This document shows, in pieces, positions 7,521-18,349 of a stretch of 64,000 nucleotides of DNA. The stretch's first letter is position 1. Each line of letters starts with the position of its first letter. Under the pieces are notes generated by a model. The model was not told the origin of the DNA, searched no databases, and saw only the letters and a list, made by a program, of their open reading frames with translations. The translations under genes and the position numbers were made by a program. This DNA is from Spirochaetia bacterium. Its GTDB lineage: Bacteria > Spirochaetota > Spirochaetia > CADAEX01. The DNA is taken from contig OY759746.1 of NCBI GenBank assembly GCA_963662795.1, positions 1,120,001 to 1,184,000 of the forward strand, written 5' to 3'.

Positions 7521-7558
7521 TGTAAAATTTCTTTTCATGCATGTAAAAAGAATATACA
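7521..7558. promoter_or_regulatory. Tandem putative enhancer (UAS) dyads
   Basis: TGTAAAATTTCTTTTCA and TGTAAAAAGAATATACA, 21 bp apart, upstream of the sigma-54 promoter. Confidence 0.55.
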
Positions 7559-7583
7559 CATAATGTTCACGCGATCTGCTTTT

Positions 7584-8984
7584 TCAGGTATCCCCGGATT
7601 CCTTCGTCTCTTCCGGCAGATTCATTTTTTTTGCAAGAGTAACCCTGCTTATACCGAGTATTTTAGCCATGGCTGACTTATTAAAATTCTGCTCCCGGCC
7701 TATCCTGTCTATCATTATTTTTTCCAGTTTGTCATACAGGAGCGGTAAAAGATTATCAGAAGTCCTGTGTTCATTACAAAAATAATTAACAGCCTTCTCC
7801 AGTAAATTCAGCGGCGGCATACTTACAAGCCGCACCTGCATATCATGCAGAGACAGGGATGGTCCCTGTGCGTTTATACATATACTTGTAAGCAGATTTT
7901 CCAGCTCTCTCACGTTACCAGGCCAGTCATACGCGGTAAATTCAGACATAAGATCACTGGCTATCGACGTAAATATCTTATTTAATTTATATGATGCATT
8001 CTTCAGGAAAAAATCAGCAAGCACCGGAATATCTTCTTTCCTGTCCCTCAATGGGGGAATTACAATTTTTGCAACATTTATCCTGTAATATAAATCTTCG
8101 CGAAAACGGCCTGTTTTAACCTCATCATGCAGGTTTCTGTTTGTCGCGGTTATTACCCTTGCCTTTAGTTTTATGTTTTTAAGGCCGCCCATCCGCTGAT
8201 ATTCCTTCTCCTGAAGTACCCTTAGAAGTTTTGTCTGAATCTGCAGCGGCATGTCGCCGATCTCATCCAGGAAAATTGTCCCCTCACCCGCTGCTTCAAA
8301 CTTGCCGATTTTAAGCGATACTGCGCCTGTGAAAGCCTGCGGCTCATGACCGAAGAGTTCATTATCAAGAAGGGATTCGGTCAGCCCGGAACAGTTCACC
8401 GCGATAAAAGGTTCATTTTTTCTGTTGCCGTTAAAATGCAGCGCCCGGGCCAGAAGTTCTTTCCCGGTTCCGCTCTCCCCTGTGATATGCACAACAACAT
8501 CATTATTAACAAGCCGTCCTACGGATTTAAATACATCCTGCATAAGAACCGAATTCCCGATAATTTTTTTCAGTTCATAATTTCTGATATTTTCAGATCG
8601 GATAGTGTTAACATATTTACTCAATTTTCTGGATTCGACAGCCCGTTTCGCCAGAATTGATATTTTATCAATATCAAGCGGTTTCTCTATATAATCATAA
8701 GCACCAAGTGAAGTTGCCTCAATTATTGTTTCAAAATTTCCATGCGCTGTAATCATGATAACCGGGACACCAGGGTCCAGTTTTTTTAGGGATTTCAGAA
8801 TGGCAAGACCGTCTTCACCCGGCATTCTGTAATCAAGAAACACAAGATCCACTTCACGGCTTGAAAAAATATCAAGACCTTCTTTACCGTTATATCCATT
8901 AAAAACTTCATGTTCACTGCTGAATAATTGAGTAAAGCTTTTCTGTATATTTTTATCATCATCTATAACAAGTATTGCCGCCAT
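7584..8984 (-). CDS. Sigma-54-dependent response regulator (NtrC family)
   Basis: Receiver (VIDDD, LDYRMP, KP), AAA+ (GESGTGKE, QAFTGA, FLDEIGD, FREDLYYR, WPGNVREL) and Fis-type HTH. Start placed at MAAILV. Confidence 0.95.
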   Translation of the reverse strand: MAAILVIDDDKNIQKSFTQLFSSEHEVFNGYNGKEGLDIFSSREVDLVFLDYRMPGEDGLAILKSLKKLDPGVPVIMITAHGNFETIIEATSLGAYDYIEKPLDIDKISILAKRAVESRKLSKYVNTIRSENIRNYELKKIIGNSVLMQDVFKSVGRLVNNDVVVHITGESGTGKELLARALHFNGNRKNEPFIAVNCSGLTESLLDNELFGHEPQAFTGAVSLKIGKFEAAGEGTIFLDEIGDMPLQIQTKLLRVLQEKEYQRMGGLKNIKLKARVITATNRNLHDEVKTGRFREDLYYRINVAKIVIPPLRDRKEDIPVLADFFLKNASYKLNKIFTSIASDLMSEFTAYDWPGNVRELENLLTSICINAQGPSLSLHDMQVRLVSMPPLNLLEKAVNYFCNEHRTSDNLLPLLYDKLEKIMIDRIGREQNFNKSAMAKILGISRVTLAKKMNLPEETKESGDT

Positions 8985-8994
8985 ATCCAGCCCC

Positions 8995-10755
8995 TTAAAC
9001 AATTGGAATCTTATCACTGGTTCTGTAAGGGAGAATTACCCTGAACACAGTTTCATGTTTATTACTTTCAACCTGAATTGTTCCGTAGTGTCTTTCTATA
9101 ATCAATTTTGTTAACGCAAGACCTAACCCGGTACCATCTTTCTTTGTAGTGTAAAAAGGTTCGAATATTTTCCTTATATTTTCATCAGGAATTTCGCTTC
9201 CGGTATTTCTGAATTCCATGACAACGTTTGATTCCTTTATTTTAGTGGAGATATTAAGAAATCCTCCGTCAGGCATTGCCTGAATTGCATTGATTATAAA
9301 ATTTATAAAGCAAATACGTATTTTTTCTCCATCCAGATATACTGCAGGAAGTCTATTTTCAAGATTGCATTCAAGCTTTATATTCTGATGCTCAATATTA
9401 TACTTATACTGATTAACAATATTAAGCAGTATCGAATTAATATCATTTTTGGAAAAATGCATAGGCCCCGGTTTTGAAAACTCAAGTAAATCCTTTACAA
9501 GGTTATTAATTCGGTCAATTTCCTCGAGAATCGCGTTTACTTCCTGAATTCCTCCCTTATCAGAAAGATATCTGCTGCGGATTATCTGAGACATCATTTT
9601 TATTGAACTTAAAGGATTTCTGATTTCATGGGCAAGACCGGCCGACAGTTGTCCGACTGCCGCAAGTTTGGCAGACTTTATCATATCATCCTGAAGTTTT
9701 ATTATCTGTTTATTGTACTTGTGAATCTTTCTGGACAGGTTATTGATGCTTTCCGCTATTATCCTGAATTCATCATTGGATTTTATGTCAACAATAGGAT
9801 CATCACTGCTGAGGCTGAAATTATTAATACCGTCTATGATTTTGCCGAGAGATGTATTTATGTTATTCGCAAGAACCAGATAAGCTAAAAGGGAAAGCGT
9901 GAAACCTATCATAATCATCAGGAAAAGCAGATTACCCATATAAGAAAAATACTGATCGTTGCTTTTTTCCTTAATAAACAGATTGATTGCTCCCCAGTAC
10001 CTGTCCTCTTCCGAGTATAGGGCTTTAAGCATAAAATAGTATTTATTACCCTCAATTTCCTCTTCAAATACAAGTCTGTCTTTTTCCTGTAACTGCTTAA
10101 TCCTGTGATCTTCAATTATTTCAAATCCCTGATACGTAGAGATAATTTTGCTGTTTCCCCAGTAAATACCGTTATCCAGCCCTGTAAGTTTTCTCATATT
10201 TTCTACCAGGTCTTTAGAGAAAAGCGATCCAATCATTAAAAGGCTTATAATCTCCCCGTTTTTCTCCACAGGGGCTACCGCACGTATGGCTAACCCTGAT
10301 TTTCCGCTTTCATAGCTTACAATATTTTTACCGGCAAGCCCTGCCTTTACTATGTTCTGGTCTATTTTCAGGTCACCGCTTTTTGCCGGGTCATGCCCTC
10401 TGATGAGAACTGTTCCGTCAGTCTTTTCAACTTCTATAATATCAAAAATTCCCATCCTGTAAAAATTGCTTAACCGCTTTTCAAGAAGATCAAGGTTGCG
10501 GTTCGATATAAGATCAATTATTTCACTGTCTTTTGATAAGGTTTTAACCGCATTCAGACAGTCATCTTCCTTGAACATAATTTCGTTATAGTAAGCGGTT
10601 ATGCTGTCTTCAAGCCTGACGATATAGGCCTTCTTTACTGAGCTTTTTATCAGCCAGTAACCTATTGAAACAGAAGTAATTGTCGTTACAAGAATTATAA
10701 AAATAAATGAGATGAATATTTTAATATTAAGTCTGTACCTGAGAAAGTAACCCAT
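8995..10755 (-). CDS. Membrane sensor histidine kinase (Cache-like periplasmic domain, HAMP)
   Basis: Two TM segments, H-box LAHEIRNPL, N-box NAIQA and G-boxes GTGLGL. Confidence 0.93.
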   Translation of the reverse strand: MGYFLRYRLNIKIFISFIFIILVTTITSVSIGYWLIKSSVKKAYIVRLEDSITAYYNEIMFKEDDCLNAVKTLSKDSEIIDLISNRNLDLLEKRLSNFYRMGIFDIIEVEKTDGTVLIRGHDPAKSGDLKIDQNIVKAGLAGKNIVSYESGKSGLAIRAVAPVEKNGEIISLLMIGSLFSKDLVENMRKLTGLDNGIYWGNSKIISTYQGFEIIEDHRIKQLQEKDRLVFEEEIEGNKYYFMLKALYSEEDRYWGAINLFIKEKSNDQYFSYMGNLLFLMIMIGFTLSLLAYLVLANNINTSLGKIIDGINNFSLSSDDPIVDIKSNDEFRIIAESINNLSRKIHKYNKQIIKLQDDMIKSAKLAAVGQLSAGLAHEIRNPLSSIKMMSQIIRSRYLSDKGGIQEVNAILEEIDRINNLVKDLLEFSKPGPMHFSKNDINSILLNIVNQYKYNIEHQNIKLECNLENRLPAVYLDGEKIRICFINFIINAIQAMPDGGFLNISTKIKESNVVMEFRNTGSEIPDENIRKIFEPFYTTKKDGTGLGLALTKLIIERHYGTIQVESNKHETVFRVILPYRTSDKIPIV

Positions 10756-10934: not shown

Positions 10935-11579
10935 ATGGCTAAATTGTGGAAAAAACAGGAATCAGTTTTTTCAAAGATTAAGATTTATTTTGAAAAAGCG
11001 GATTTGACACGCGATGTATTTAAAAAAACTATTGCAGATCTAATCAGACAGACACCTGACGTCGATTTTGGAGAGGCAGTGGAACTGGTACATGCGGCAG
11101 AACATGAAGCAGATATCAAGAGAAGGGAAGTTATTACGGAACTTTACCGGAAAGCTTTGATACCGGGATCCAGAGGTGATGTTCTTGGGCTGCTGGAAAA
11201 TTTTGATCAGCTTCCCAATACTTTCCAGAAGATATGCAACCAAATATACTTCCAGAATGTAGTATTTCCTGAAAACTTCAGGGAAAGAATCATTGACCTT
11301 ATAAATGTAAATATTGATGCATATAATCTCACCAAAGATGCAGCATTCTGTCTTTTTGATGAGGCGGATCTGGTAAATAAAACTGAACTCATTTGCGAAA
11401 AGGAAAGAGAATCAGATGCAAGGGAAAGAGGACTTACACGTGATATCTTTAACACGGATATGGAACTTGCCCTTAAAATGCTTTACAAGCAGATTATCAT
11501 TTCCATAGGTAATATTTCAGACATAGCAGAAGATATTTCAGACAGGGTTGAAATAGCTGTCATAAAAAGGAGACTATAA
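10935..11579 (+). CDS. DUF47 family phosphate transport regulator
   Basis: AEHEADIKRREV, LIPGSRGDVLGL, ERESD and IGNISDIAEDISDR; lies directly upstream of pit. Confidence 0.9.
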   Translation: MAKLWKKQESVFSKIKIYFEKADLTRDVFKKTIADLIRQTPDVDFGEAVELVHAAEHEADIKRREVITELYRKALIPGSRGDVLGLLENFDQLPNTFQKICNQIYFQNVVFPENFRERIIDLINVNIDAYNLTKDAAFCLFDEADLVNKTELICEKERESDARERGLTRDIFNTDMELALKMLYKQIIISIGNISDIAEDISDRVEIAVIKRRL

Positions 11580-11582
11580 TAA

Positions 11583-12524
11583 ATGTTCAGGCTGTTAAGC
11601 GGAATATTTATGGGCTGGTCTCTAGGTGCCAATGATTCCGCTAATATATTTGGCACGGCTGTCTATTCAAGAATGATCAGGTTCAAGACAGCTTTATTCT
11701 GGCTTTGTATTTTTATTGTTTTAGGGTCAATGCTGCAGGGCGCGGCAGGGATGCATACATTAAGCGGTCTCGTTGTGCAGAATATGAATACCGCTTTTAT
11801 TACAGCGTTTGCTGCTGCATTGACTGTTACTGTTATGACGTTTTATGGTCTTCCGGTATCAACTTCCCAGGCAATGGTCGGGGCGATAATGGGGATTGGG
11901 GTTGTAATCGGACAGATTGATTTTTCAAAACTTCCAAAAGTTTTTGCATGCTGGGTTGGTACACCGGTAGGATGTGTTATTGCAACAGTAATACTGTATC
12001 CGCTTCTGAGTAAGCTTTTTTCAATTCTTAAAATGAATATATTCAGGCAGGATTCTGTACTCAGATGGGGACTTATAGCAGTAGGCTGTTACGGGGCATA
12101 TTCTTTGGGAGCCAATAACGTAGCTAATGTCACAGGCATATACATCGAAACAGGTCTTCTTAATGTAACCCAGGCGCTGATTCTCGGCAGCCTCAGCATC
12201 TGTATCGGGGCAATTACCTACAGCAGAAAAGTAATGATGACAGTCGGGGAAAAGCTTGTAAGACTTGACGCCTTCAGCGCATTCGTTGCTGTTCTCTCAA
12301 TGTCGATAATATTAAATATTTATGCAGTAGTAGGCGTACCGGTTTCTTCGTCACAGGCGATAGTCGGAAGTGTACTAGGTATAGGTATTGTTAAAGGTGT
12401 TAAAACCATCAACATAAGGACCTTAATAAATATTGTAATAGGATGGCTGACAACTCCAGTAATTGCAATGATAGTATCAATTGCATTATATGTCGGAGCA
12501 ATAAAAATACTTGGGATAAACTGA
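11583..12524 (+). CDS. pit: Inorganic phosphate transporter (PiT family)
   Basis: GANDSAN and GANNVAN signatures; PVSTSQA and PVSSSQA. Confidence 0.92.
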   Translation: MFRLLSGIFMGWSLGANDSANIFGTAVYSRMIRFKTALFWLCIFIVLGSMLQGAAGMHTLSGLVVQNMNTAFITAFAAALTVTVMTFYGLPVSTSQAMVGAIMGIGVVIGQIDFSKLPKVFACWVGTPVGCVIATVILYPLLSKLFSILKMNIFRQDSVLRWGLIAVGCYGAYSLGANNVANVTGIYIETGLLNVTQALILGSLSICIGAITYSRKVMMTVGEKLVRLDAFSAFVAVLSMSIILNIYAVVGVPVSSSQAIVGSVLGIGIVKGVKTINIRTLINIVIGWLTTPVIAMIVSIALYVGAIKILGIN

Positions 12525-12591: not shown

Positions 12592-13086
12592 ATGAATGAA
12601 GAAATAATCCAGCTTTGCGACCTGAAGGGAACCCCCTGCGGCACCTCTCCCAGATCAGTCTGCCACAAAGATCCGTCACTTATACAGATGGTAGTTCACC
12701 TTATGGTAATGAATTCAGGAGGCAGCTTTTTTCTTCAAAAAAGGGCTTTTTCCAAAGAGGCCTTTCCCGGATACTGGGACACATCTGTCGGAGGGCACGT
12801 AAGCGGCGGGGAAAACCTGATGCAGGCGCTGAAACGCGAGGCTGATGAGGAGATAGGGATTGAATTAATCCATGCAGATTTTGTCTTTAAAAAGCTGTAT
12901 TTTATGGAAAATGAAACAGAGATGTCTTTCTTTTATAAAACTGTTTATGACGGTCCTTTCAGGATAGACAATGACGAAGTCACAGAAGGACGCTTCTTTA
13001 CAGCCGGAGAAATAAGTCCCCTGATAGGCACGAATATATTTACTCCAAGCCTTGAAAACGGGTTTTTGGCTATTTCAGGCAATTAA
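12592..13086 (+). CDS. NUDIX hydrolase (IPP isomerase/YfcD-like)
   Basis: LQKRA, PGYWDTSVGGHV and Nudix box GENLMQALKREADEEIG. Confidence 0.85.
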   Translation: MNEEIIQLCDLKGTPCGTSPRSVCHKDPSLIQMVVHLMVMNSGGSFFLQKRAFSKEAFPGYWDTSVGGHVSGGENLMQALKREADEEIGIELIHADFVFKKLYFMENETEMSFFYKTVYDGPFRIDNDEVTEGRFFTAGEISPLIGTNIFTPSLENGFLAISGN

Positions 13087-13988
13087 AACATAGGAGTCGG
13101 ATAAATATTTGACCACTGATTAACAAGGTCCAGAAAATCCTTGAGCGGTTTTGAAAAATACTTGTCGCTGTGATATATCATGTAATACTTTCTCCTAAAA
13201 TTTTTGTCCTCAACCGGAACAGCGACAAGCCGGCCGCTGGCAACTTCTTCCGTAACCATATTATTGGATATAAAAGCAACACCCATTTCATGCTGGACAA
13301 GCCGCTTTATTGCTTCACTGTTTGATATTTCATAATTCACATTCACATCAATTTTATACTTTCTTATAAAACTGTCTGTTATTTTCCTGGTCACAGACCC
13401 TTTCTCGTGAAGAATCAGGTTGCATCCCTGGAGGTCGGCAATCTCGAGCCTGTCCCGTCTGGTCAGCGGGAAAGCAGGGTTTGCGATCAGGACAATATTG
13501 TCCTCAAGAACTTCATGCACAGATATTTTGGGATTCTGGATCGGTTTTGATATGAATCCTATATCATTATTCAGGTCAGCTGTATTCTCAATAATACTGT
13601 CATTATGCCCAATCATGACTGAAATATTTATATCCTGATTGGTTCTTTTATAGTATTTAATGATGTAGGGAATATAATAGGCCCCGAAGCTTTCACAGGA
13701 AAGGATATTGATTTTACCCTTGCTGTATTGCTGAAAATCCCTGATACTTTCCTCAGCCTGGCTTTCCATATCAAATATTTTATCTGCGATACTGTATAAA
13801 TGCTCGCCGGCATCAGTCAGAACAACTTTTTTACCGATAATATCGAGGAATTTAAGGTCATAATGACTCTGGAGCTGTTTAATCTGTTTGGTAACAGCAG
13901 GCTGAGTGATGCAAAGAACATCAGCGGCTTTTGTGAGACTTTTATACTTTGCTGTATAATAAAATGTCTTTAAATGATAGAGATTCAT
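13083..13988 (-). CDS. LysR family transcriptional regulator
   Basis: SLTKAADVLCITQPAVTKQIKQL HTH, LTDAG and substrate-binding domain. Confidence 0.93.
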   Translation of the reverse strand: MNLYHLKTFYYTAKYKSLTKAADVLCITQPAVTKQIKQLQSHYDLKFLDIIGKKVVLTDAGEHLYSIADKIFDMESQAEESIRDFQQYSKGKINILSCESFGAYYIPYIIKYYKRTNQDINISVMIGHNDSIIENTADLNNDIGFISKPIQNPKISVHEVLEDNIVLIANPAFPLTRRDRLEIADLQGCNLILHEKGSVTRKITDSFIRKYKIDVNVNYEISNSEAIKRLVQHEMGVAFISNNMVTEEVASGRLVAVPVEDKNFRRKYYMIYHSDKYFSKPLKDFLDLVNQWSNIYPTPMF

Positions 13989-14024
13989 AACTATTGTTCA
14001 TGTTAATGATTACCCAACCGGCAG

Positions 14025-14741
14025 TCAAGTATATTTTAAGATATTATCAAGCTCCAGAAGCGCTTCAAGCCGGTTTATCTCGGGAACCTGAAAAGCGGGC
14101 TCAGGCCAGTTTCTTTCAACTGAATAATGCTTCAGCCAGACAGGGTTTAGGCCGGCGTTTTTACTGCCTTCAATGTCAATTTTCATATCATCCCCGATAA
14201 ATACCGCTTCTTCTCCCTTTACTCCCAGTTTTTCAAGTATTATCCGGAAAGGGACCGGGTCAGGTTTTGCAGGGATATCACCTTCCCCGGCAATAACAAT
14301 AGCGTCAAACAAGACTTCAAGCTTTCTATATTCTTCGTTATCAAGAGCTTTTGTGCTCCCGTCTTTCTGCGAGTTTGAAACCATACCCAGTTTATATTTT
14401 GTTTTAAGTTTTTCAAGTACACTGACCGTTTCGGGAAAGAGACGCATGCTGCTCCCTACAATCTTCCAGTATTCATCTTCAAGCTGCATCAAAAAACCTT
14501 CATCAACCGAAGCTTTATACTTTGAACACAGCGTTATCCATACATTTTTCCTTGAAAAATCAGATCTGCTAAAATGTTCTTTTCTCTCTTTACGGTAATC
14601 CTCAATATATTCATCCCAGGAGATGCCGATGGTTCCGATTCTTTCAAACAGATCTCTTTGTGATTTTTTTTCTGCAGTTTTATATCCGTCTGCGGCTGAT
14701 CCAAGAGTCTGAACAAAATCAAAAACTATGGCTTTTATCAT
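14025..14741 (-). CDS. HAD-superfamily hydrolase (subfamily IA, atypical motif I)
   Basis: IVFDFVQT, MVSN, KPDP and FIGDDMKIDIEG. Start placed at the ATG after SD AGGAG. Confidence 0.85.
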   Translation of the reverse strand: MIKAIVFDFVQTLGSAADGYKTAEKKSQRDLFERIGTIGISWDEYIEDYRKERKEHFSRSDFSRKNVWITLCSKYKASVDEGFLMQLEDEYWKIVGSSMRLFPETVSVLEKLKTKYKLGMVSNSQKDGSTKALDNEEYRKLEVLFDAIVIAGEGDIPAKPDPVPFRIILEKLGVKGEEAVFIGDDMKIDIEGSKNAGLNPVWLKHYSVERNWPEPAFQVPEINRLEALLELDNILKYT

Positions 14742-14806
14742 ATTCTTCACTCCTGTTTATATTCACACTGCCGGAATATTTACATTTTTTTCCATAGCCG
14801 GATTAC

Positions 14807-14833
14807 AAAAACGGGCTCCTCAGGGAGCCCGTT
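14807..14833 (-). terminator. Terminator after aldehyde dehydrogenase
   Basis: AACGGGCTCC-CTGA-GGAGCCCGTT followed by Ts on the minus strand. Confidence 0.8.
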
Positions 14834-14865: not shown

Positions 14866-16257
14866 TTAACCAATCAGTTTTTTAGCCTTTTCAAGATATG
14901 GACCATAAACTTCTTCATCTGTCGGCACATACTCAGGTATAGGAACAGCCATTCTCGTGGTATTCATAAAATGCCTGTAGTTGATGTTATCGCTGTGACT
15001 GTTGCCTGTCCATGTTCCGCAGCCGATTGTTGTTGTAAATTCGTGACCGGCGAAAAAGCTGCCGCTGTTTACAATTGTATTCGGCATATTGATATTTACC
15101 CTTCCGGTTGGAATATATTCGGCAAGCCTTTCCCACTGCTGGGGTTTTGCGGAATGAAGTGCGCATGAATGCCCGATTCCGGAGAAGAGCAGATTCTTTT
15201 TGAGAGTTTTGATTTCCTCTTCAAAATCTGTCCATGTCCATACGGTAAGGACAAGGGAGAGCTTTTCATTTGAAAACATGTCTTCAGGTCCGATTTTTTG
15301 CCCTTTTACCATAATGAATTTTGTCCCTTCAGGAACAGAAATGCCTGCAATTTTTGCAATATTCTGAACAGAAGATGCAACAATATCCCTGTTAAGGGTG
15401 TGTCCGTCAGGCCACATTGCTTTTCTGAGTTTTTCCCTGTCTTCATCGCTTAAAAGGAATCCGCCTACTTTTTTAAGCTCTTCCATCATTTTGTCATATA
15501 CTGAAACATGAATCGATACAGCATTTTCTGATGAGCATGATGTTGCATTGTCAAAAATCTTTGATCTCATAACACAGTCAGCAGCTTTTGCAAGATCAGC
15601 TGAAGGATCAATAATTGCCCTTACATTGCCTGCACCTACGGTGATGGCTGGAGTACCGGCTGCATGAACAACCTTGATAAGGGCTTTTCCGCCTGTAGCG
15701 ACTGCAAAATCACATGTTGACATGAGTTCTACTGTTTTTTCGTTTGTAGGCTCTTCAATGCAGAGCATCAGATCCTCAGGAGCTCCGAATGCCTTGAGTG
15801 CTTTTCTTCCATATTCAACAGTTCTGAATGTAGACTGCTTTGTTCTCGGATGGGGCGAGCAGATCATGGCATTCCTTGTTTTAAGAAGTGAAAGGCCGAT
15901 AAAACAGGTTGTTATCGTCGGGTTGGTACAGGGGACGACATTGGCAACAACACCGATCGGTTTGGCGTATGTCTTGATTCCCTTTTCTTTATCATCTTTA
16001 ATGAGACCGCAGGTTTTCTTCCCTTTCATGTCCCACATTATTCCTCTTATCTTGTTAGCCTTTTTTACCTTGTCTTCATAAACACCCATTCCGGATTCGT
16101 CAACTGCAAGTTTTGCAACTTCGCGGGCAAAGTCTTCCTTCTGCCACTGCCATGCGACTACCGCAAGCATTTCATCAACCTTTTCCTGGGGCCAGAATTC
16201 TATTACCTCAAATGCTTTTCTGGCTCTGGCATACATCTCTTTAATATTATCAGCCAT
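14866..16257 (-). CDS. CoA-acylating aldehyde dehydrogenase (SauS/SucD-like)
   Basis: PIGVVANVVPCTNP, ATGG, GAGN, SKIFDNATSCSSEN (catalytic Cys), EKLS, GHS and GCGTW. Confidence 0.85.
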   Translation of the reverse strand: MADNIKEMYARARKAFEVIEFWPQEKVDEMLAVVAWQWQKEDFAREVAKLAVDESGMGVYEDKVKKANKIRGIMWDMKGKKTCGLIKDDKEKGIKTYAKPIGVVANVVPCTNPTITTCFIGLSLLKTRNAMICSPHPRTKQSTFRTVEYGRKALKAFGAPEDLMLCIEEPTNEKTVELMSTCDFAVATGGKALIKVVHAAGTPAITVGAGNVRAIIDPSADLAKAADCVMRSKIFDNATSCSSENAVSIHVSVYDKMMEELKKVGGFLLSDEDREKLRKAMWPDGHTLNRDIVASSVQNIAKIAGISVPEGTKFIMVKGQKIGPEDMFSNEKLSLVLTVWTWTDFEEEIKTLKKNLLFSGIGHSCALHSAKPQQWERLAEYIPTGRVNINMPNTIVNSGSFFAGHEFTTTIGCGTWTGNSHSDNINYRHFMNTTRMAVPIPEYVPTDEEVYGPYLEKAKKLIG

Positions 16258-16285
16258 TTCCTTAAATCTCCTTGTTTACACCTGA

Positions 16286-16387
16286 CATTACCCCGGTAAT
16301 TTACCAGGGTAATGGTTGTTTTTCAGATACTTAAATTCCTGTTGTGCAGGTTTATAACTGCAGGACGTTTGTAAAAACATCCTGCAG
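16286..16387. repeat. Two intercistronic hairpins
   Basis: CATTACCCCGGTAA/TTACCAGGGTAATG (16286-16314) and CTGCAGGACGTTT/AAACATCCTGCAG (16358-16387), each with one mismatch. Confidence 0.7.
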
Positions 16388-16400
16388 ATTCATTAGAATA

Positions 16401-17465
16401 CTATTTTTTTGAAACACTGGCCTTTCTTGGGTCCTCAATAACATACGGTATAGAGTAAGCTGAACCTTTGAGTCTTTCCATTTCTTTCCAGCCTTTATCC
16501 CAATCCTTGGCAGTCTGATACTGTGTCCCTTTTTCCGGTCTTTCAGAAAGCGCAGGAACCGGCTTGTCAACCGGACCGTCATACCACTCTTTCGGAGTAA
16601 GTGTCTGGCCAAGAACGTCTGAAGATTCTCTTTCCATCTCTTCAATTGCATGGGAACCTGCAGCAAAGGCCCTTGTAACTGACAAAACACACCAGGCAGC
16701 ATCGCTTGAAAACTCAAGCTCCATCATTGCAGCTGACATTGCTCCTATCATATCGACTTCCACATAGCCAATCTTTTCCTTGGCAGCTTTAACTATTTCT
16801 TTCATAAGTGGAACATATCTGAGTTTTTTTACGCCTTTAAGTTTTTTCTCTGCAAAATCAAGAAGCTTTGAAGGTGTTGGATCTTTTACATAAAGATCTG
16901 AAACACCGAAATGGTCTTCATACTTGCATTCATCTACGCAAAGTTTTGCAGCATCTGCAAGACTCATTCCTTCTTCTACTTTTGCAGCATATTTTGCAAG
17001 CATCTTTCCTGTTGCGTCATATGAAGCATAGGAGTGGCCGAAAGCAAGAACTGAACCGCCGCAGGCCTGTGTTACATAAGACTTGCCTCTTGCGATAAGT
17101 CTTGCTATAAGGGCAGGATTTGAAAGTCCGTCTTCAAGGCCGAGAACCATTACATATTCAAGTACATCTTTCTCTTCCTTAAGAGGAATTCTTGCCTGAT
17201 AATCAATAAAGATAATATCACAAGTACCATAACCTGCTTCAACAAGTTCTGTTGTGTCATAACCTCTTGTGACAATCCTGTGGATATTCTTGTAGGCAAC
17301 TTCAGATACCCATTTAAATCCTTCACGGTTGTCCGGGGGAAGTGTACCGACCTCCCTGTTTGTATAGTCAAATTTCAACTTTGGACTTGCAAGGTTTCCA
17401 ATAGTAGGTCTCTTTGCAAATTTCATCTGTCCGATTCTTTCATCTGAATGTTTTACAGCGCCCAT
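16401..17465 (-). CDS. Citrate-synthase-fold / citryl-CoA lyase-like protein, subunit B (degenerate active site)
   Basis: W.SEV......IVTRGY, EDGLSNPA, KDPT and RAF...SHAIEE. Paralogous to the upstream gene and overlaps its stop. Confidence 0.65.
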   Translation of the reverse strand: MGAVKHSDERIGQMKFAKRPTIGNLASPKLKFDYTNREVGTLPPDNREGFKWVSEVAYKNIHRIVTRGYDTTELVEAGYGTCDIIFIDYQARIPLKEEKDVLEYVMVLGLEDGLSNPALIARLIARGKSYVTQACGGSVLAFGHSYASYDATGKMLAKYAAKVEEGMSLADAAKLCVDECKYEDHFGVSDLYVKDPTPSKLLDFAEKKLKGVKKLRYVPLMKEIVKAAKEKIGYVEVDMIGAMSAAMMELEFSSDAAWCVLSVTRAFAAGSHAIEEMERESSDVLGQTLTPKEWYDGPVDKPVPALSERPEKGTQYQTAKDWDKGWKEMERLKGSAYSIPYVIEDPRKASVSKK

Positions 17466-18349
17466 CTTTTATATTCTCCTGATTCTAACTGTTTCTTTGC
17501 ATAAGCCTGTCTTTCTGACATAGGAGGCACTTCCCTGTCTTCCGGACCCACATATTTGATCATGGCGAGGTCAAGCATCTGTACCATCGGTTCATTTCTT
17601 GATGCAGCCCAAGCCCTTCCTTTTTTAAGTGTATAAAGAGCGTGACATGCGCAGCTGAAACCTCTGGTCACACAGCCGATAACCCATGCTGCATTCGGAG
17701 CAAAACCCATATCAGCAAGTGCTACGTTTCCGGCTCCTACCATGTTAACTGCTACATAAGCTCTTCCTTCAGCAGCTCTTCTTGCGTAGAATTTCTCTTC
17801 AAGTGCTCTCTGGAATTTAAGGTAAACACCGCCTACTCCGAGTTCTTCCTGTTTGAGGTGTGTCGGTTCAGCTCTCGGATCACCGTCAAGGTGCTGGGGC
17901 TGTCCCATTCCCATAACCGCAAGGCCTGCATCCATGTACTCTGTTACGCATTCACCGGCAACCTGCTCAGGTGTTTTATCCTGTTTGACTGCCCTGTCAA
18001 GATATTTCTTGATCATGTATCCGTGAGCAGCTCCGGGTCCGTGCGCTCCGCCGAATGTCATTATTGATGATGCTACAGCCGCGGGAAGCATAGGGTGACC
18101 GTTAATAACTGCAATAGAACTTACTGCAGAAGGCGACATAGAGTGCTCAAGAAATTCAGCAACTTCGTAGTCAAGCATGGCTCTTTCATTTTCCGCAGGA
18201 ATCCTTCCCTGAAATAGCACAAACAGTGCGTCGGCAAAAGTGTAACCTGCCTCGGCAAGATCACTTACATTAAAACCCCTTAAAACTGTCTTTTCTTCTG
18301 TCTTGTAGGAAATGGCAGTTTTTCTCTGGATCAATGGTTTCCGATCCAT
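17453..18349 (-). CDS. Citrate-synthase-fold / citryl-CoA lyase-like protein, subunit A
   Basis: TAIS......VLRG, LFQGRIP, EHSMSPS, GGAHGPGA, GMGQ...DPRA and NMVGA; SD AGGAGG. Confidence 0.75.
   Translation of the reverse strand: MDRKPLIQRKTAISYKTEEKTVLRGFNVSDLAEAGYTFADALFVLFQGRIPAENERAMLDYEVAEFLEHSMSPSAVSSIAVINGHPMLPAAVASSIMTFGGAHGPGAAHGYMIKKYLDRAVKQDKTPEQVAGECVTEYMDAGLAVMGMGQPQHLDGDPRAEPTHLKQEELGVGGVYLKFQRALEEKFYARRAAEGRAYVAVNMVGAGNVALADMGFAPNAAWVIGCVTRGFSCACHALYTLKKGRAWAASRNEPMVQMLDLAMIKYVGPEDREVPPMSERQAYAKKQLESGEYKRWAL

Follow-up and report, generated by a model that had tools for sequence, protein, structure and literature searches.

According to Zangelmi et al. (2021, PMC8154272), 2-aminoethylphosphonate is degraded by the hydrolytic pathways PhnW-PhnX and PhnW-PhnY-PhnA, which are fed by PbfA. 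Phosphonoacetaldehyde is the hub in the breakdown of 2-aminoethylphosphonate, 1-hydroxy-2-aminoethylphosphonate and 2-hydroxyethylphosphonate. We studied a window (the whole stretch of DNA analysed, 64,000 nucleotides) from a Spirochaetia bacterium, and propose that an operon within it is a CoA-dependent module consuming this aldehyde. Most likely, the gene set serves to break the C-P bond in natural phosphonates through a so far undescribed route. We found no description of this route in the literature, and to our knowledge phosphonoacetyl-CoA is not a known metabolite.

Gene content and conservation of the cassette

The cassette and its neighbours are as follows, with the basis of each assignment in brackets.

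10935-11579, plus strand: DUF47/TIGR00153 protein (family scores)
11583-12524, plus strand: PiT-family phosphate/sulfate permease (family scores)
12592-13086, plus strand: Nudix hydrolase, IDI-like, below cut-off (family scores)
13083-13988, minus strand: LysR-family regulator (family scores)
14025-14750, minus strand: HAD-superfamily hydrolase (HAD), 241 aa from GTG (family scores, motifs)
14810-14833, minus strand: terminator-like hairpin between ALDH and HAD, 10-bp stem with 7 GC pairs and a T-rich tail (pattern match only)
14866-16257, minus strand: SauS-like CoA-acylating aldehyde dehydrogenase (ALDH), 463 aa (ORF list, family scores)
16401-17465, minus strand: subunit B, diverged paralogue of A, 354 aa (ORF list, family scores, paralogy)
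17453-18349, minus strand: subunit A, citrate-synthase/citryl-CoA-lyase fold, 298 aa (ORF list, family scores, alignment)
18648/18759-20102, plus strand: canonical citrate synthase, divergent to the cassette (NF010635, family scores)

The minus-strand genes run in the order A, B, ALDH, HAD hydrolase and LysR regulator. The ATG of B falls within the final codons of A, giving an overlap of 13 nt, and is preceded by AGGAG; for the HAD, an ATG at 14741 is a likelier start than the GTG. The region has three terminator-like hairpins of this kind, whereas shuffled sequence gave an expectation of 5.0. The original prediction had described tandem, overlapping citrate-synthase-fold paralogues together with an ALDH, and we recovered these ORFs with all of the quoted motifs in their translations (LEHS, GGAHGPG, GDPR, GMGQ and NMVG in A; LEDG, FGHSYASY, DHFGVS, KDPT and VDMIG in B). 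The HAD hydrolase did not feature in that prediction, and co-occurs with A genome-wide.

We identified B after A in all 75 loci with room for both. The predicted linkage of the ALDH to A-B held in 61 of the 64 loci with room, and that of the HAD was looser (46/55). A-B-ALDH(-HAD) is a conserved cassette, present in at least five phyla and widespread in anaerobic bacteria, with A approximately 70% identical among records from Spirochaetia, Desulfobacterales, Syntrophales, Planctomycetota, Verrucomicrobiota and Chloroflexota.

LysR genes of related type occur close to the cassette in 25 of the 80 loci examined, and a LysR paralogue elsewhere in the window's own genome adjoins PbfA and shares 48% identity with its counterpart at locus L003. 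The PiT permease and DUF47 genes, both adjoining the cassette here, occur near it in 10 and 8 of the 80 loci, respectively, which would suit a pathway that handles phosphate, and nearby Nudix genes form two clusters, of 6 and 5 loci. The divergent citrate synthase is a full-length family member (NF010635, 710.7 bits; cut-off 426) and the sole copy in its genome, indicating a housekeeping function. A functional tie between this gene and the cassette is not supported, on these grounds and because their synteny is limited to the 17 Spirochaetia loci among the 80. We saw no citryl-CoA synthetase among the recurrent neighbours.

Phosphonate context and the aldehyde dehydrogenase

Phosphonate-marker genes were identified within approximately 8 kb of the cassette in 40 of the 80 loci, with each neighbour cluster annotated from one representative: PhnW in 18, an HpnZ-type dehydrogenase in 16, PbfA in 10, PhnA in 9, phn_DUF6 in 7 and PhnD in 6. 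The neighbouring PhnW, PbfA, HpnZ-type dehydrogenase, PhnD and PhnA all make or handle phosphonoacetaldehyde. There was no phosphonate gene within approximately 8 kb in the 17 Spirochaetia loci nearest to the window (L003-L019), so that in this lineage the link to phosphonates is through orthology and genome-level co-occurrence. Among 50 cassette-holding genomes, PbfA exceeded its cut-off in 32 and PhnW in 21, one or the other being present in 36 (a union counted by hand from two tables). Within the window's own class, all five PbfA holders among 151 sampled genomes fall within the eight A holders (Fisher p = 9e-8, for holders that are kin).

Canonical PhnX and PhnY were each absent from all 50 cassette-holding genomes, the PhnY search being without a positive control; PhnX has a low base rate (6/151 genomes), from which its lack in A holders does not differ statistically (Fisher p = 1.0). 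In the window's own genome we identified two PbfA genes above cut-off, and best matches below cut-off for canonical PhnX (109.7 bits; cut-off 220), PhnY (271.4; cut-off 635.65) and PhnA (171.8 bits; cut-off 407.55). A PhnX-like HAD of this genome (TIGR03351, 160.6 bits; cut-off 218.9) adjoins an HpnZ-type dehydrogenase, and might hydrolyse phosphonoacetaldehyde.

The ALDH, with the active-site motif SKIFDNATSCSSEN, has as its top model SauS (NF047625), matched over the full length at 487.5 bits without reaching the cut-off of 600, compared with 389.3 bits for the AdhE-type acetaldehyde dehydrogenase model and 331 for the EutE-type. Among solved structures it is nearest to 8cei, an acylating succinate-semialdehyde dehydrogenase, and the substrates of SauS and of this enzyme are both anionic. 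We propose that the ALDH is a phosphonoacetaldehyde dehydrogenase forming phosphonoacetyl-CoA. The SauS match would also suit sulfoacetaldehyde as the substrate, with sulfoacetyl-CoA as the product and sulfite released by A/B, and the adjacent PiT permease gives a weak match to the CysP sulfate-permease model (125.3 bits; cut-off 400). We consider a sulfonate substrate highly improbable, given the missed SauS cut-off, the genome-level co-occurrence with PbfA and PhnW, and the annotated neighbour clusters of the 80 loci, in which all recurrent substrate-specific genes are phosphonate-related and no sulfonate gene recurs. The original prediction had envisaged an ALDH-made acyl-CoA with an acidic alpha-carbon; of its candidates, phosphonoacetyl-CoA fits the gene context and sulfoacetyl-CoA, with no recurrent sulfonate genes, does not.

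Candidate catalysts of C-P bond cleavage

Subunit A matches Pfam Citrate_synt (PF00285) at 42.9 bits and B at 17 bits, above and below the cut-off of 27, and the top NCBIfam models of both are citryl-CoA lyase PRK06224 subfamilies (115.5 and 69.3 bits; cut-off 212). The two are paralogues (30% identity, E 6.5e-26). Aligned with the solved citryl-CoA lyase 6hxp (E 9.8e-17), A has GMGQ at GYGH and NMVG at NVDG. In pig citrate synthase numbering, A retains the equivalents of His238, His274, Arg329 and Arg401, and carries Gln at His320 and Val at Asp375. The Gln at His320 (Gln150) does not vary over 34 orthologues; position 204, at Asp375, is Val or Ile in all eight A-family rows tabulated; and the catalytic His and Asp of the fold are absent from both A and B. 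The anion-binding His/Arg positions of the oxaloacetate site are retained in A. The family-wide replacement of the His and Asp supports non-citrate chemistry for A/B, in agreement with the original prediction. A and B resolve as sister clades within an Asp-less clade, separate from the clade of the representative P0171, which carries GYGH and NVDG as in 6hxp (FastTree supports 0.94 and 0.996), placing both outside the characterised citryl-CoA lyases. B, described in the original prediction as having lost nearly everything, is not simply dead: 58 of its columns are invariant over 37 orthologues, many in an N-terminal extension.

The proposed A/B heteromer is supported by the constant adjacency of the genes and by complex prediction, with a score of 0.87 against 0.00 for the best of three controls, contact agreement between runs of at least 92% and partner pLDDT of at least 87. 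Of the 80 solved complexes used for calibration, 58 attained this score, as did 2 of the 110 mismatched pairs; these counts hold only roughly because the A:B run used its own alignments and a riding CoA. The score may stem from resemblance to solved citrate synthase dimers.

We infer the chemistry of the cassette as follows. The ALDH would convert phosphonoacetaldehyde, NAD(P)+ and CoA to phosphonoacetyl-CoA, which the A/B heterodimer would bind as citrate synthase does acetyl-CoA. With the acetyl-CoA enolate stabilised as the leaving group, the C-P bond would break, giving acetyl-CoA and phosphate. The general-base Asp would be unneeded, since the enolate would arise via C-P cleavage and not deprotonation, and we propose that its family-wide loss reflects the repulsion of a carboxylate beside the dianionic phosphonate. 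The HAD would act in the same pathway: it may itself accept the phosphoryl group, or its substrate may be a phosphorylated intermediate with a good leaving group, which it would hydrolyse. The net yield would be phosphate, acetyl-CoA and NAD(P)H, without free acetaldehyde. We favour cleavage of ALDH-made phosphonoacetyl-CoA by A/B tentatively, at somewhat less than an even chance; one point against it is that A offers the enolate no obvious proton donor.

Two other reactions are conceivable for A/B. As originally suggested, A/B could be a lyase splitting a 3-hydroxyacyl-CoA to acetyl-CoA and an aldehyde that the ALDH re-acylates, in keeping with the fold similarity to citryl-CoA lyase. This appears extremely improbable, as the lyase reaction relies on acid/base residues that are missing here, enzymes forming 3-hydroxyacyl-CoA do not recur among the neighbours, and neighbours of PhnW, PbfA and HpnZ type already make the aldehyde directly. 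A/B could otherwise be a phosphonoacetyl-CoA thioesterase, performing the hydrolytic half-reaction of citrate synthase, which hydrolyses citryl-CoA using an Asp. The ALDH and A/B would then only oxidise phosphonoacetaldehyde to phosphonoacetate, and a PhnA-type hydrolase, such as those beside the cassette in 9/80 loci or the PhnA-like protein of the window's own genome, would cleave the C-P bond. However, most loci have no PhnA, the own-genome copy is far under the cut-off, the thioester would be wasted and A lacks the Asp used for hydrolysis, making this reading very unlikely.

The main rival to cleavage by A/B is cleavage by the HAD, either of phosphonoacetaldehyde in a PhnX-like reaction, after which the ALDH would turn acetaldehyde into acetyl-CoA, or of phosphonoacetyl-CoA. 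A/B would have another, still CoA-thioester-binding role; for example, they might polarise the enolate, protonate it or handle the product. Motif I of the HAD is FDFVQT in the window and FDF[V/G]QT family-wide; the Asp nucleophile is kept, and the Asp+2 general acid is Val in the window and missing in 27 of 28 sequences. The same acid is lost in PhnX, where motif I is DxAxT, making the HAD a credible C-P hydrolase, and its invariant Arg53, Arg56, His208 and Arg213 would suit an anionic substrate. In an order-level sample of 151 genomes, HAD and A were both present in 17, HAD only in 2, A only in 2 and neither in 130, placing the HAD in 17 of 19 A holders. The co-occurrence persists where the two genes are unlinked, indicating that any scheme without an essential role for the HAD is incomplete. 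Genome G172 has a separate operon of PhnW, ALDH, a 221-aa ORF with no NCBIfam match, and HAD, 2.6 Mb from A-B.

Against this rival, no Lys is invariant or at least 90% conserved in the cap, as placed from sequence only, so that a PhnX-style Schiff base is not evident. PhnX is absent among the 42 solved relatives of the HAD at E <= 1e-3, the closest of which, PH0459 (1x42/3u26), is listed only as 'hypothetical protein' or 'PF00702 domain protein'. Cassette-type HAD was not found at E <= 1e-30 in five A-B-ALDH genomes (G167, G191, G193, G194 and G200), and appears dispensable in some lineages; its linkage is also looser than that of the ALDH. Cleavage by the HAD would leave the most conserved cassette proteins without a defined function, and the ALDH is closer to anionic-aldehyde dehydrogenases than to acetaldehyde dehydrogenases. 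We regard cleavage by the HAD as doubtful.

Finally, A/B may act on a non-thioester phosphonate, such as phosphonopyruvate, an oxaloacetate analogue, or phosphonoacetaldehyde itself, in a function common to catabolic and biosynthetic clusters. At locus L057, in genome G183, a fusion of a cytidylyltransferase (CT) with A shares a PepM operon of biosynthesis-like type with B, PhnW-AepZ, a nucleotidyltransferase and a B12-radical-SAM. Neither cassette ALDH nor cassette HAD was found in G183, nor was Ppd (best 30.9 bits; cut-off 312.5), and two further CT-A fusions occur among homologues (P0094 and P0105). The retained oxaloacetate-site positions of A point the same way. However, the PepM-operon context is found in one of 80 loci; A and B are absent from all of the 80 best metagenome CT-domain loci, in 68 of which CT precedes PepM, its normal position; and at locus L164 the same set of genes, again lacking Ppd, occurs with no A/B. 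The ALDH, in turn, adjoins A-B in 61/64 loci, and PepM or other phosphonopyruvate-forming genes do not recur in catabolic loci. We judge a non-thioester substrate decidedly unlikely, and retain cleavage of phosphonoacetyl-CoA by A/B as the preferred reading.

Comparison with known systems

Citrate synthase, citryl-CoA lyase (6hxp) and the citryl-CoA-lyase module of ATP-citrate lyase share the fold family PF00285 with A. The dimeric architecture of citrate synthase and citryl-CoA lyase is predicted for A/B, and the proposed cleavage at the alpha-carbon of acetyl-CoA would likewise leave an enzyme-stabilised enolate. A differs from these in the Gln and Val/Ile at the His320 and Asp375 positions. 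Unlike citryl-CoA lyase, A/B would be an obligate heteromer of two diverged paralogues; both proteins miss every NCBIfam citryl-CoA lyase cut-off widely, and their context is phosphonate catabolism.

The ALDH resembles SauS (NF047625) and SucD-type succinate-semialdehyde dehydrogenase (8cei) over its full length, in its catalytic Cys motif and as a CoA-acylating enzyme, and the substrate aldehydes of both bear an anionic group. In contrast to SauS, it falls under the cut-off (487.5 against 600), has no sulfonate genes nearby and has a context pointing to phosphonoacetaldehyde, an isostere of sulfoacetaldehyde. The HAD shares its superfamily with PhnX and the PhnX-like TIGR03351, and the loss of the Asp+2 acid with PhnX. 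It differs in keeping the motif III Lys (K162) and in having no invariant Lys in its sequence-assigned cap, and PhnX is not among its close sequence relatives.

With the PhnW-PhnX and PhnW-PhnY-PhnA pathways (PMC8154272), the cassette has in common the feeders PhnW and PbfA, the hub phosphonoacetaldehyde and the logic of a beta-carbonyl as the electron sink for C-P cleavage. In contrast to these pathways, canonical PhnX and PhnY are absent in 50/50 holders searched, a CoA thioester would serve as the electron sink and a protein of the citrate synthase fold as the catalyst, and acetyl-CoA would be formed in place of acetaldehyde or acetate.

Divergent citrate-synthase-fold subunits and the linked aldehyde dehydrogenase

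The three minus-strand ORFs of the cassette, encoding two citrate-synthase-fold subunits (A and B) and a SauS-like acylating aldehyde dehydrogenase (ALDH), were located where the original prediction had placed them, and every motif it had quoted for the three proteins is present in their translations. The features of this region are:

17453-18349, minus strand: subunit A, 298 aa
16401-17465, minus strand: subunit B, 354 aa
14866-16257, minus strand: ALDH, 463 aa
14810-14833: terminator-like hairpin, a pattern match only

Subunits A and B are paralogous to one another (30% identity, E 6.5e-26); the ATG of B is located within A, 13 nt from its end, and is preceded by an AGGAG. Against the Pfam family Citrate_synt (PF00285; cut-off 27), A scores 42.9 bits, above the cut-off, and B 17 bits, under it. 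The best NCBIfam models for both subunits are citryl-CoA lyase subfamilies (PRK06224), each far under its cut-off; every NCBIfam citryl-CoA lyase cut-off was missed by both proteins, the top score of A being 115.5 against 212. When A is aligned to the solved citryl-CoA lyase 6hxp (E 9.8e-17), GYGH becomes GMGQ and NVDG becomes NMVG. All 34 orthologues of A share Gln150, and the eight A-family sequences tabulated have Val or Ile at position 204. B carries Val or Ile at the His320 position and Ile, Leu or Met at the Asp375 position. Neither A nor B thus retains the full catalytic set of His274, His320 and Asp375 (pig citrate synthase numbering), the last two being replaced in both. The divergently transcribed gene next door encodes a full citrate synthase (710.7 bits), the sole canonical one in the 3.93-Mb genome.

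Among the candidates scored, 516 were relatives of A at E <= 1e-3, and identity in the best 120 was 69-97%; at 50% clustering, 447 relatives were found at E <= 1e-3 and just 22 at E <= 1e-30. In a FastTree phylogeny of 100 full-length sequences, rooted on the citrate synthase of the window, A and B resolve as sister clades (support 0.94), nested in a clade without the catalytic Asp (support 0.996). This Asp-less clade is separate from those keeping the His, Asn and Asp residues, which include a representative (P0171) with GYGH and NVDG as in 6hxp, and A and B were placed outside the clade of characterised enzymes. A look-up of A in the ESM Atlas returned generic "putative citrate synthase" clusters only. 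We additionally noted many other citryl-CoA-lyase-like (PRK06224-type) families with NATG, NAAG, NVTG or NAVG in place of the Asp motif (representatives including P0192, P0194, P0195, P0210, P0216, P0235 and others); the Asp-less families are a large uncharacterised part of the citryl-CoA-lyase superfamily.

A complex of A (34-row alignment) and B (37 rows), predicted with CoA included, scored 0.87 (runs 0.83, 0.88 and 0.87; best of three controls 0.00), the runs sharing at least 92% of contacts, with a partner pLDDT of at least 87. The 0.87 mark was reached by 58/80 solved complexes and 2/110 mismatched pairs, counts that calibrate this prediction only roughly, since it used its own alignments and a small molecule; the pass may also reflect likeness, because solved citrate synthase dimers exist. 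The predicted interface of A includes residues 152-155, 158-159 and 162, in the QPQH...DPR region, and that of B includes 39-66, a conserved N-terminal extension with invariant R47, K59, H62 and R63, the interface list giving the residues of each subunit separately. An AlphaFold2 monomer of A from the 34-row alignment was too poor for use (mean pLDDT 57.5, pTM 0.48).

The ALDH has the profile, the catalytic Cys motif and the full-length similarity of a CoA-acylating aldehyde dehydrogenase of the AdhE/EutE/SucD type. It scores 69.2 bits against Aldedh (PF00171; cut-off 23), and its closest solved relative is the acylating succinate-semialdehyde dehydrogenase 8cei (E 1e-94 over residues 4-452), with which its CSSE motif aligns. 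It matches the SauS model NF047625 end to end at 487.5 bits, under the equivalog cut-off of 600, and scores lower on the AdhE-type (389.3) and EutE-type (331) models. No sulfonate gene that would give a sulfoacetate, taurine or isethionate context for a SauS identity was found among the annotated recurrent gene clusters of 80 cassette loci.

Conservation of the cassette and its phosphonate neighbourhood

We investigated the distribution of A across species-representative genomes, confirming 242 stretches, of which the best 80 loci were kept. Their titles name Spirochaetia; Desulfobacterales, Syntrophales and Syntrophobacterales; Planctomycetota; Opitutia and Puniceicoccaceae; Anaerolineales and Ardenticatenales; and one "Nanoarchaeia" label. 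The cassette was found in sediment, sludge, gut and rumen anaerobes from at least five phyla. A naive ORF caller merged A, B and ALDH into one cluster, and these genes and that of the HAD-superfamily hydrolase (HAD) were therefore counted by tblastn. Where at least 1,050 nt of sequence is available, B follows A in 75/75 loci; ALDH is present in 61/64 loci with at least 4.5 kb available (absent from L044, L057 and L064), and HAD in 46/55 with at least 6 kb, L071 having a partial copy at its end. The cassette is real, strongly conserved and uncharacterised.

For the neighbouring genes, the ORFs of the 80 loci were clustered and one representative was annotated per recurrent cluster; the same ORF caller produced spurious antisense clusters (6, 10 and 13) in GC-rich loci. 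Identity thresholds undercounted accessory genes (PhnW in 9 loci, against 18 by clustering), so clustering counts were used for these.

Phosphonate markers near the cassette: score of the annotated representative (cut-off); loci of 80
PhnW (NF010006): 483.9 bits (296); 18
HpnZ-type dehydrogenase, TIGR03366 "phosphonate catabolism associated" alcohol dehydrogenase: 351.5 bits (328.1); 16
PbfA: 700.2 bits (525); 10
PhnA: 455.3 bits (407.55); 9
phn_DUF6 membrane protein: 155.8 bits, under cut-off (288.15); 7
PhnD: 222.5 bits, under its own cut-off (261.1), passing the broader TIGR01098 at 218.9 (112.05); 6

At least one of these six markers occurs in 40/80 loci. Phosphonoacetaldehyde is the product of PhnW and PbfA (PMC8154272), and the HpnZ-type dehydrogenase would also yield it. 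The cassette is both co-located and co-occurring with phosphonoacetaldehyde-forming enzymes. Further recurrent neighbours were ABC and TRAP transporters and LysR, GntR and RpiR regulators.

Within the window, the cassette has several other neighbours. Released phosphate may be handled by a PiT-family permease and a DUF47/TIGR00153 protein (10935-12524, plus strand); PiT lies near the cassette in 10 loci and DUF47 in 8, and the pair recurs in other phyla. Upstream of this pair (7584-10755, minus strand) are a sigma-54-dependent response regulator (NtrC/AtoC-like) and its AtoS-like sensor kinase; a kinase related to the latter recurs in four close Spirochaetia loci. A Nudix hydrolase (12592-13086, plus strand) resembles isopentenyl-diphosphate isomerase (75.5 bits, cut-off 127), and Nudix genes of two clusters (22 and 33) lie beside the cassette in 6 and 5 further loci; its substrate can be guessed to be a CoA ester or a CMP-phosphonate.

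Phosphonate pathways in cassette holders and in Spirochaetia

From the genomes of the 80 loci, 50 were chosen before any result was known; most of those dropped were short contigs or rumen Spirochaetia loci nearly identical to one another. We found PhnW in 21/50 of these holders and PbfA in 32/50, and one or the other in 36/50 (union, counted by hand). PhnX was above cut-off in 0/50, in a search that works, because it recovered 6 in a sample of 151 genomes of the window's own class. PhnY was likewise found in 0/50, in a search without a positive control in which nothing scored anywhere, controls included, and which is therefore weak evidence of absence. Phosphonoacetaldehyde is made in these holders and the known enzymes consuming it are absent, the PhnY search being without a positive control.

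Seventeen Spirochaetia loci (L003-L019) share the order citrate synthase, divergent from A-B-ALDH-HAD, followed by LysR in 14/17. None of the six phosphonate markers was found within about 8 kb in these loci, and the phosphonate link of the window's lineage is therefore at the genome level. The window's own genome encodes two PbfA proteins above cut-off (675.7 and 632.9 bits), a LysR paralogue adjoining one of them, and two HpnZ-type dehydrogenases next to TRAP transporters. Canonical PhnX (best 109.7 against 220), PhnY (271.4 against 635.65) and PhnA (171.8 against 407.55) were not found in it. Within the class sample, A occurs in 8 genomes and PbfA in 5, every one an A holder (Fisher p = 9e-8, the holders being close kin); PhnX occurs in 6, none an A holder, an exclusion that is not significant (Fisher p = 1.0).

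The window's genome also has a locus (L117, G000:C1:707486-712668) that carries a PhnX-like TIGR03351 hydrolase (160.6, cut-off 218.9), a TAXI-TRAP transporter and an HpnZ-type dehydrogenase; the same set of PhnX-like, HpnZ and phn_DUF6 genes lies directly upstream of A-B in locus L044. Outside the window, at G000:C1:586820-589215, we identified an above-cut-off pair of the biosynthetic genes Ppd (460.1 bits) and PepM (405.3 bits), with two further PepM-like genes at 1470102-1470959 and 2493146-2493958; phosphonate synthesis and phosphonate degradation both seem to occur in this organism. In nine rumen Spirochaetia loci (L009-L017), whose genomes measure some 1.5-1.8 Mb, an NrnA-like and a CysQ/inositol-monophosphatase-like gene, both of pAp-phosphatase types, flank the cassette.

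Two metatranscriptome runs contained contigs with relatives 80-99% alike across A, B and ALDH, among them contig X22 (record 12; 1853 nt), which covers 16626-18191 including the A/B junction, DNA carry-over being possible in each case. No contig fell on the HAD region (14005-14808), which is uninformative either way. At gathering thresholds, Rfam gave 0 matches across the whole window, and between 12400 and 18800 neither promoter-like sites (20, against 15.1 +/- 3.7 in shuffles) nor terminator-like sites (3, against 5.0 +/- 2.2) were above chance.

The HAD hydrolase and a candidate CoA-dependent route

The HAD scores 67.3 bits against PF00702 and has the motifs of a HAD-superfamily phosphotransferase. 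Motif I is FDF[V/G]QT, retaining the nucleophile Asp and replacing the Asp+2 general acid by Val or Gly in 27/28 sequences; motifs II-IV are intact, and D11, N126, K162 and D187/D188/D192 are invariant in the 28 sequences, as are R53, R56, R213 and H208. An ESM Atlas look-up returned generic "HAD family hydrolase" clusters only. The replacement of Asp+2 is the sole feature of PhnX shared by this protein, and it would allow the HAD itself to be the C-P-cleaving catalyst. The profile and the Schiff-base Lys of PhnX are, in contrast, lacking: TIGR01422 (PhnX) is absent from the best 25 of 31 NCBIfam families for the window's HAD, PhnX is not among its 42 solved relatives, and the part assigned by sequence as the cap domain contains no Lys that is invariant or at least 90% conserved. 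We consider C-P cleavage by the HAD unlikely.

A profile of 15 orthologues identified the HAD in 43/50 holders, missing it in G163, where the contig ends, and in G183, and not finding it in five genomes with A-B-ALDH (G167, G191, G193, G194 and G200). We also sampled 151 genomes from the order to which another holder, G172, belongs: HAD and A each occur in 19, together in 17, HAD alone in 2 and A alone in 2 (Fisher p = 2e-18, the holders being kin), and several of them carry the two genes far from each other. G172 itself has an operon of PhnW/AepZ, ALDH, a 221-aa ORF (L211:11022-11687, plus strand; no NCBIfam match) and HAD, 2.6 Mb away from A-B, whose neighbours there are a PhnX-like HAD, an HpnZ-type dehydrogenase and phn_DUF6. 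This co-occurrence even when unlinked indicates that the HAD is part of the pathway, and HAD and ALDH form a sub-module of it. Extra small genes such as that 221-aa ORF lie between ALDH and HAD in some lineages, and Syntrophales-type loci carry a second, beta-phosphoglucomutase-like HAD at this position (cluster 36: L037, L043, L051, L053 and L059).

The cassette very probably consumes phosphonoacetaldehyde or a near analogue. The ALDH would convert phosphonoacetaldehyde, CoA and NAD(P)+ to phosphonoacetyl-CoA, which is the probable intermediate and is not known as a metabolite in biology. A/B would then hydrolyse phosphonoacetyl-CoA to acetyl-CoA and phosphate, the citrate-synthase fold stabilising the thioester enolate as leaving group; the general-base Asp would be dispensable in A/B because no proton is abstracted. 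Two roles are proposed for the HAD: it would hydrolyse a phosphorylated intermediate whose leaving group is good, or it would itself be the phosphoryl acceptor. Taken in full, this scheme, in which A/B catalyses C-P cleavage, is advanced as a credible though tentative proposal. It is possible, if somewhat doubtful, that the A/B heterodimer is a new class of C-P-cleaving enzyme with a citrate-synthase fold, a phosphonoacetyl-CoA phosphonohydrolase using a CoA-thioester enolate as leaving group by retro-Claisen logic, with the phosphoryl group passing perhaps via the acid-less HAD or an enol or acyl phosphate and not directly to water.

One locus does not fit. In L057 (genome G183), A (7521-8897, plus strand) carries an N-terminal TagD/Fom1-like cytidylyltransferase (CT) domain, a rare fusion of which two more were found among the A homologues (P0094 and P0105). 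Its operon, biosynthesis-like in character, encodes CT-A, B, a PepM-nucleotidyltransferase fusion, PhnW/AepZ, a nucleotidyltransferase, a CobD-like decarboxylase, two B12-radical-SAM enzymes, an HD hydrolase, glycosyltransferases and flippases; neither Ppd nor the ALDH or HAD of the cassette was found in G183. In a metagenome search seeded with the CT domain, it is followed by PepM in 68/80 loci and by Ppd in 51/80, and neither A nor B was found in these 80 loci. The catabolic reading leaves A/B without a job in the L057 operon.

A literature search linking phosphonoacetaldehyde with citryl-CoA lyase or citrate synthase, with subscription journals and supplements outside its scope, returned only unrelated genome papers and a biosynthesis inventory that mentions FrbC. 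In a Burkholderia flavophos preprint, phosphonoacetyl-CoA appears as a predicted product that did not form. The main text of a 2023 review (PMC10574752) contains none of the terms "citryl", "acylating", "citrate synthase" or "acetyl-CoA", and that of PMC10590968 none of "citryl", "acylating" or "citrate".

The cassette occupies precisely the place left empty by the canonical enzymes that consume phosphonoacetaldehyde. If the scheme is true, it would account for aminophosphonate use by many anaerobes that have PhnW or PbfA and neither PhnX nor PhnY, assign a function within the large Asp-less, so far uncharacterised portion of the citryl-CoA-lyase superfamily, and correct the routine mis-annotation of these genes as "citrate synthase". 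Phosphonates are a major pool of organic phosphorus, and on this scheme both an enzyme family and a CoA-thioester intermediate would be new to phosphorus cycling. Were A/B a C-P-cleaving class, strict anaerobes would have a third hydrolytic route, drawing phosphate as well as acetyl-CoA, and therefore ATP, from natural phosphonates. To our knowledge, few types of C-P-cleaving enzyme have been described, namely C-P lyase, PhnX, PhnA, PalA and the oxidative PhnY*/PhnZ pair. We consider it most likely that the cassette gives anaerobes a third branch of hydrolytic phosphonate catabolism, one that depends on CoA.
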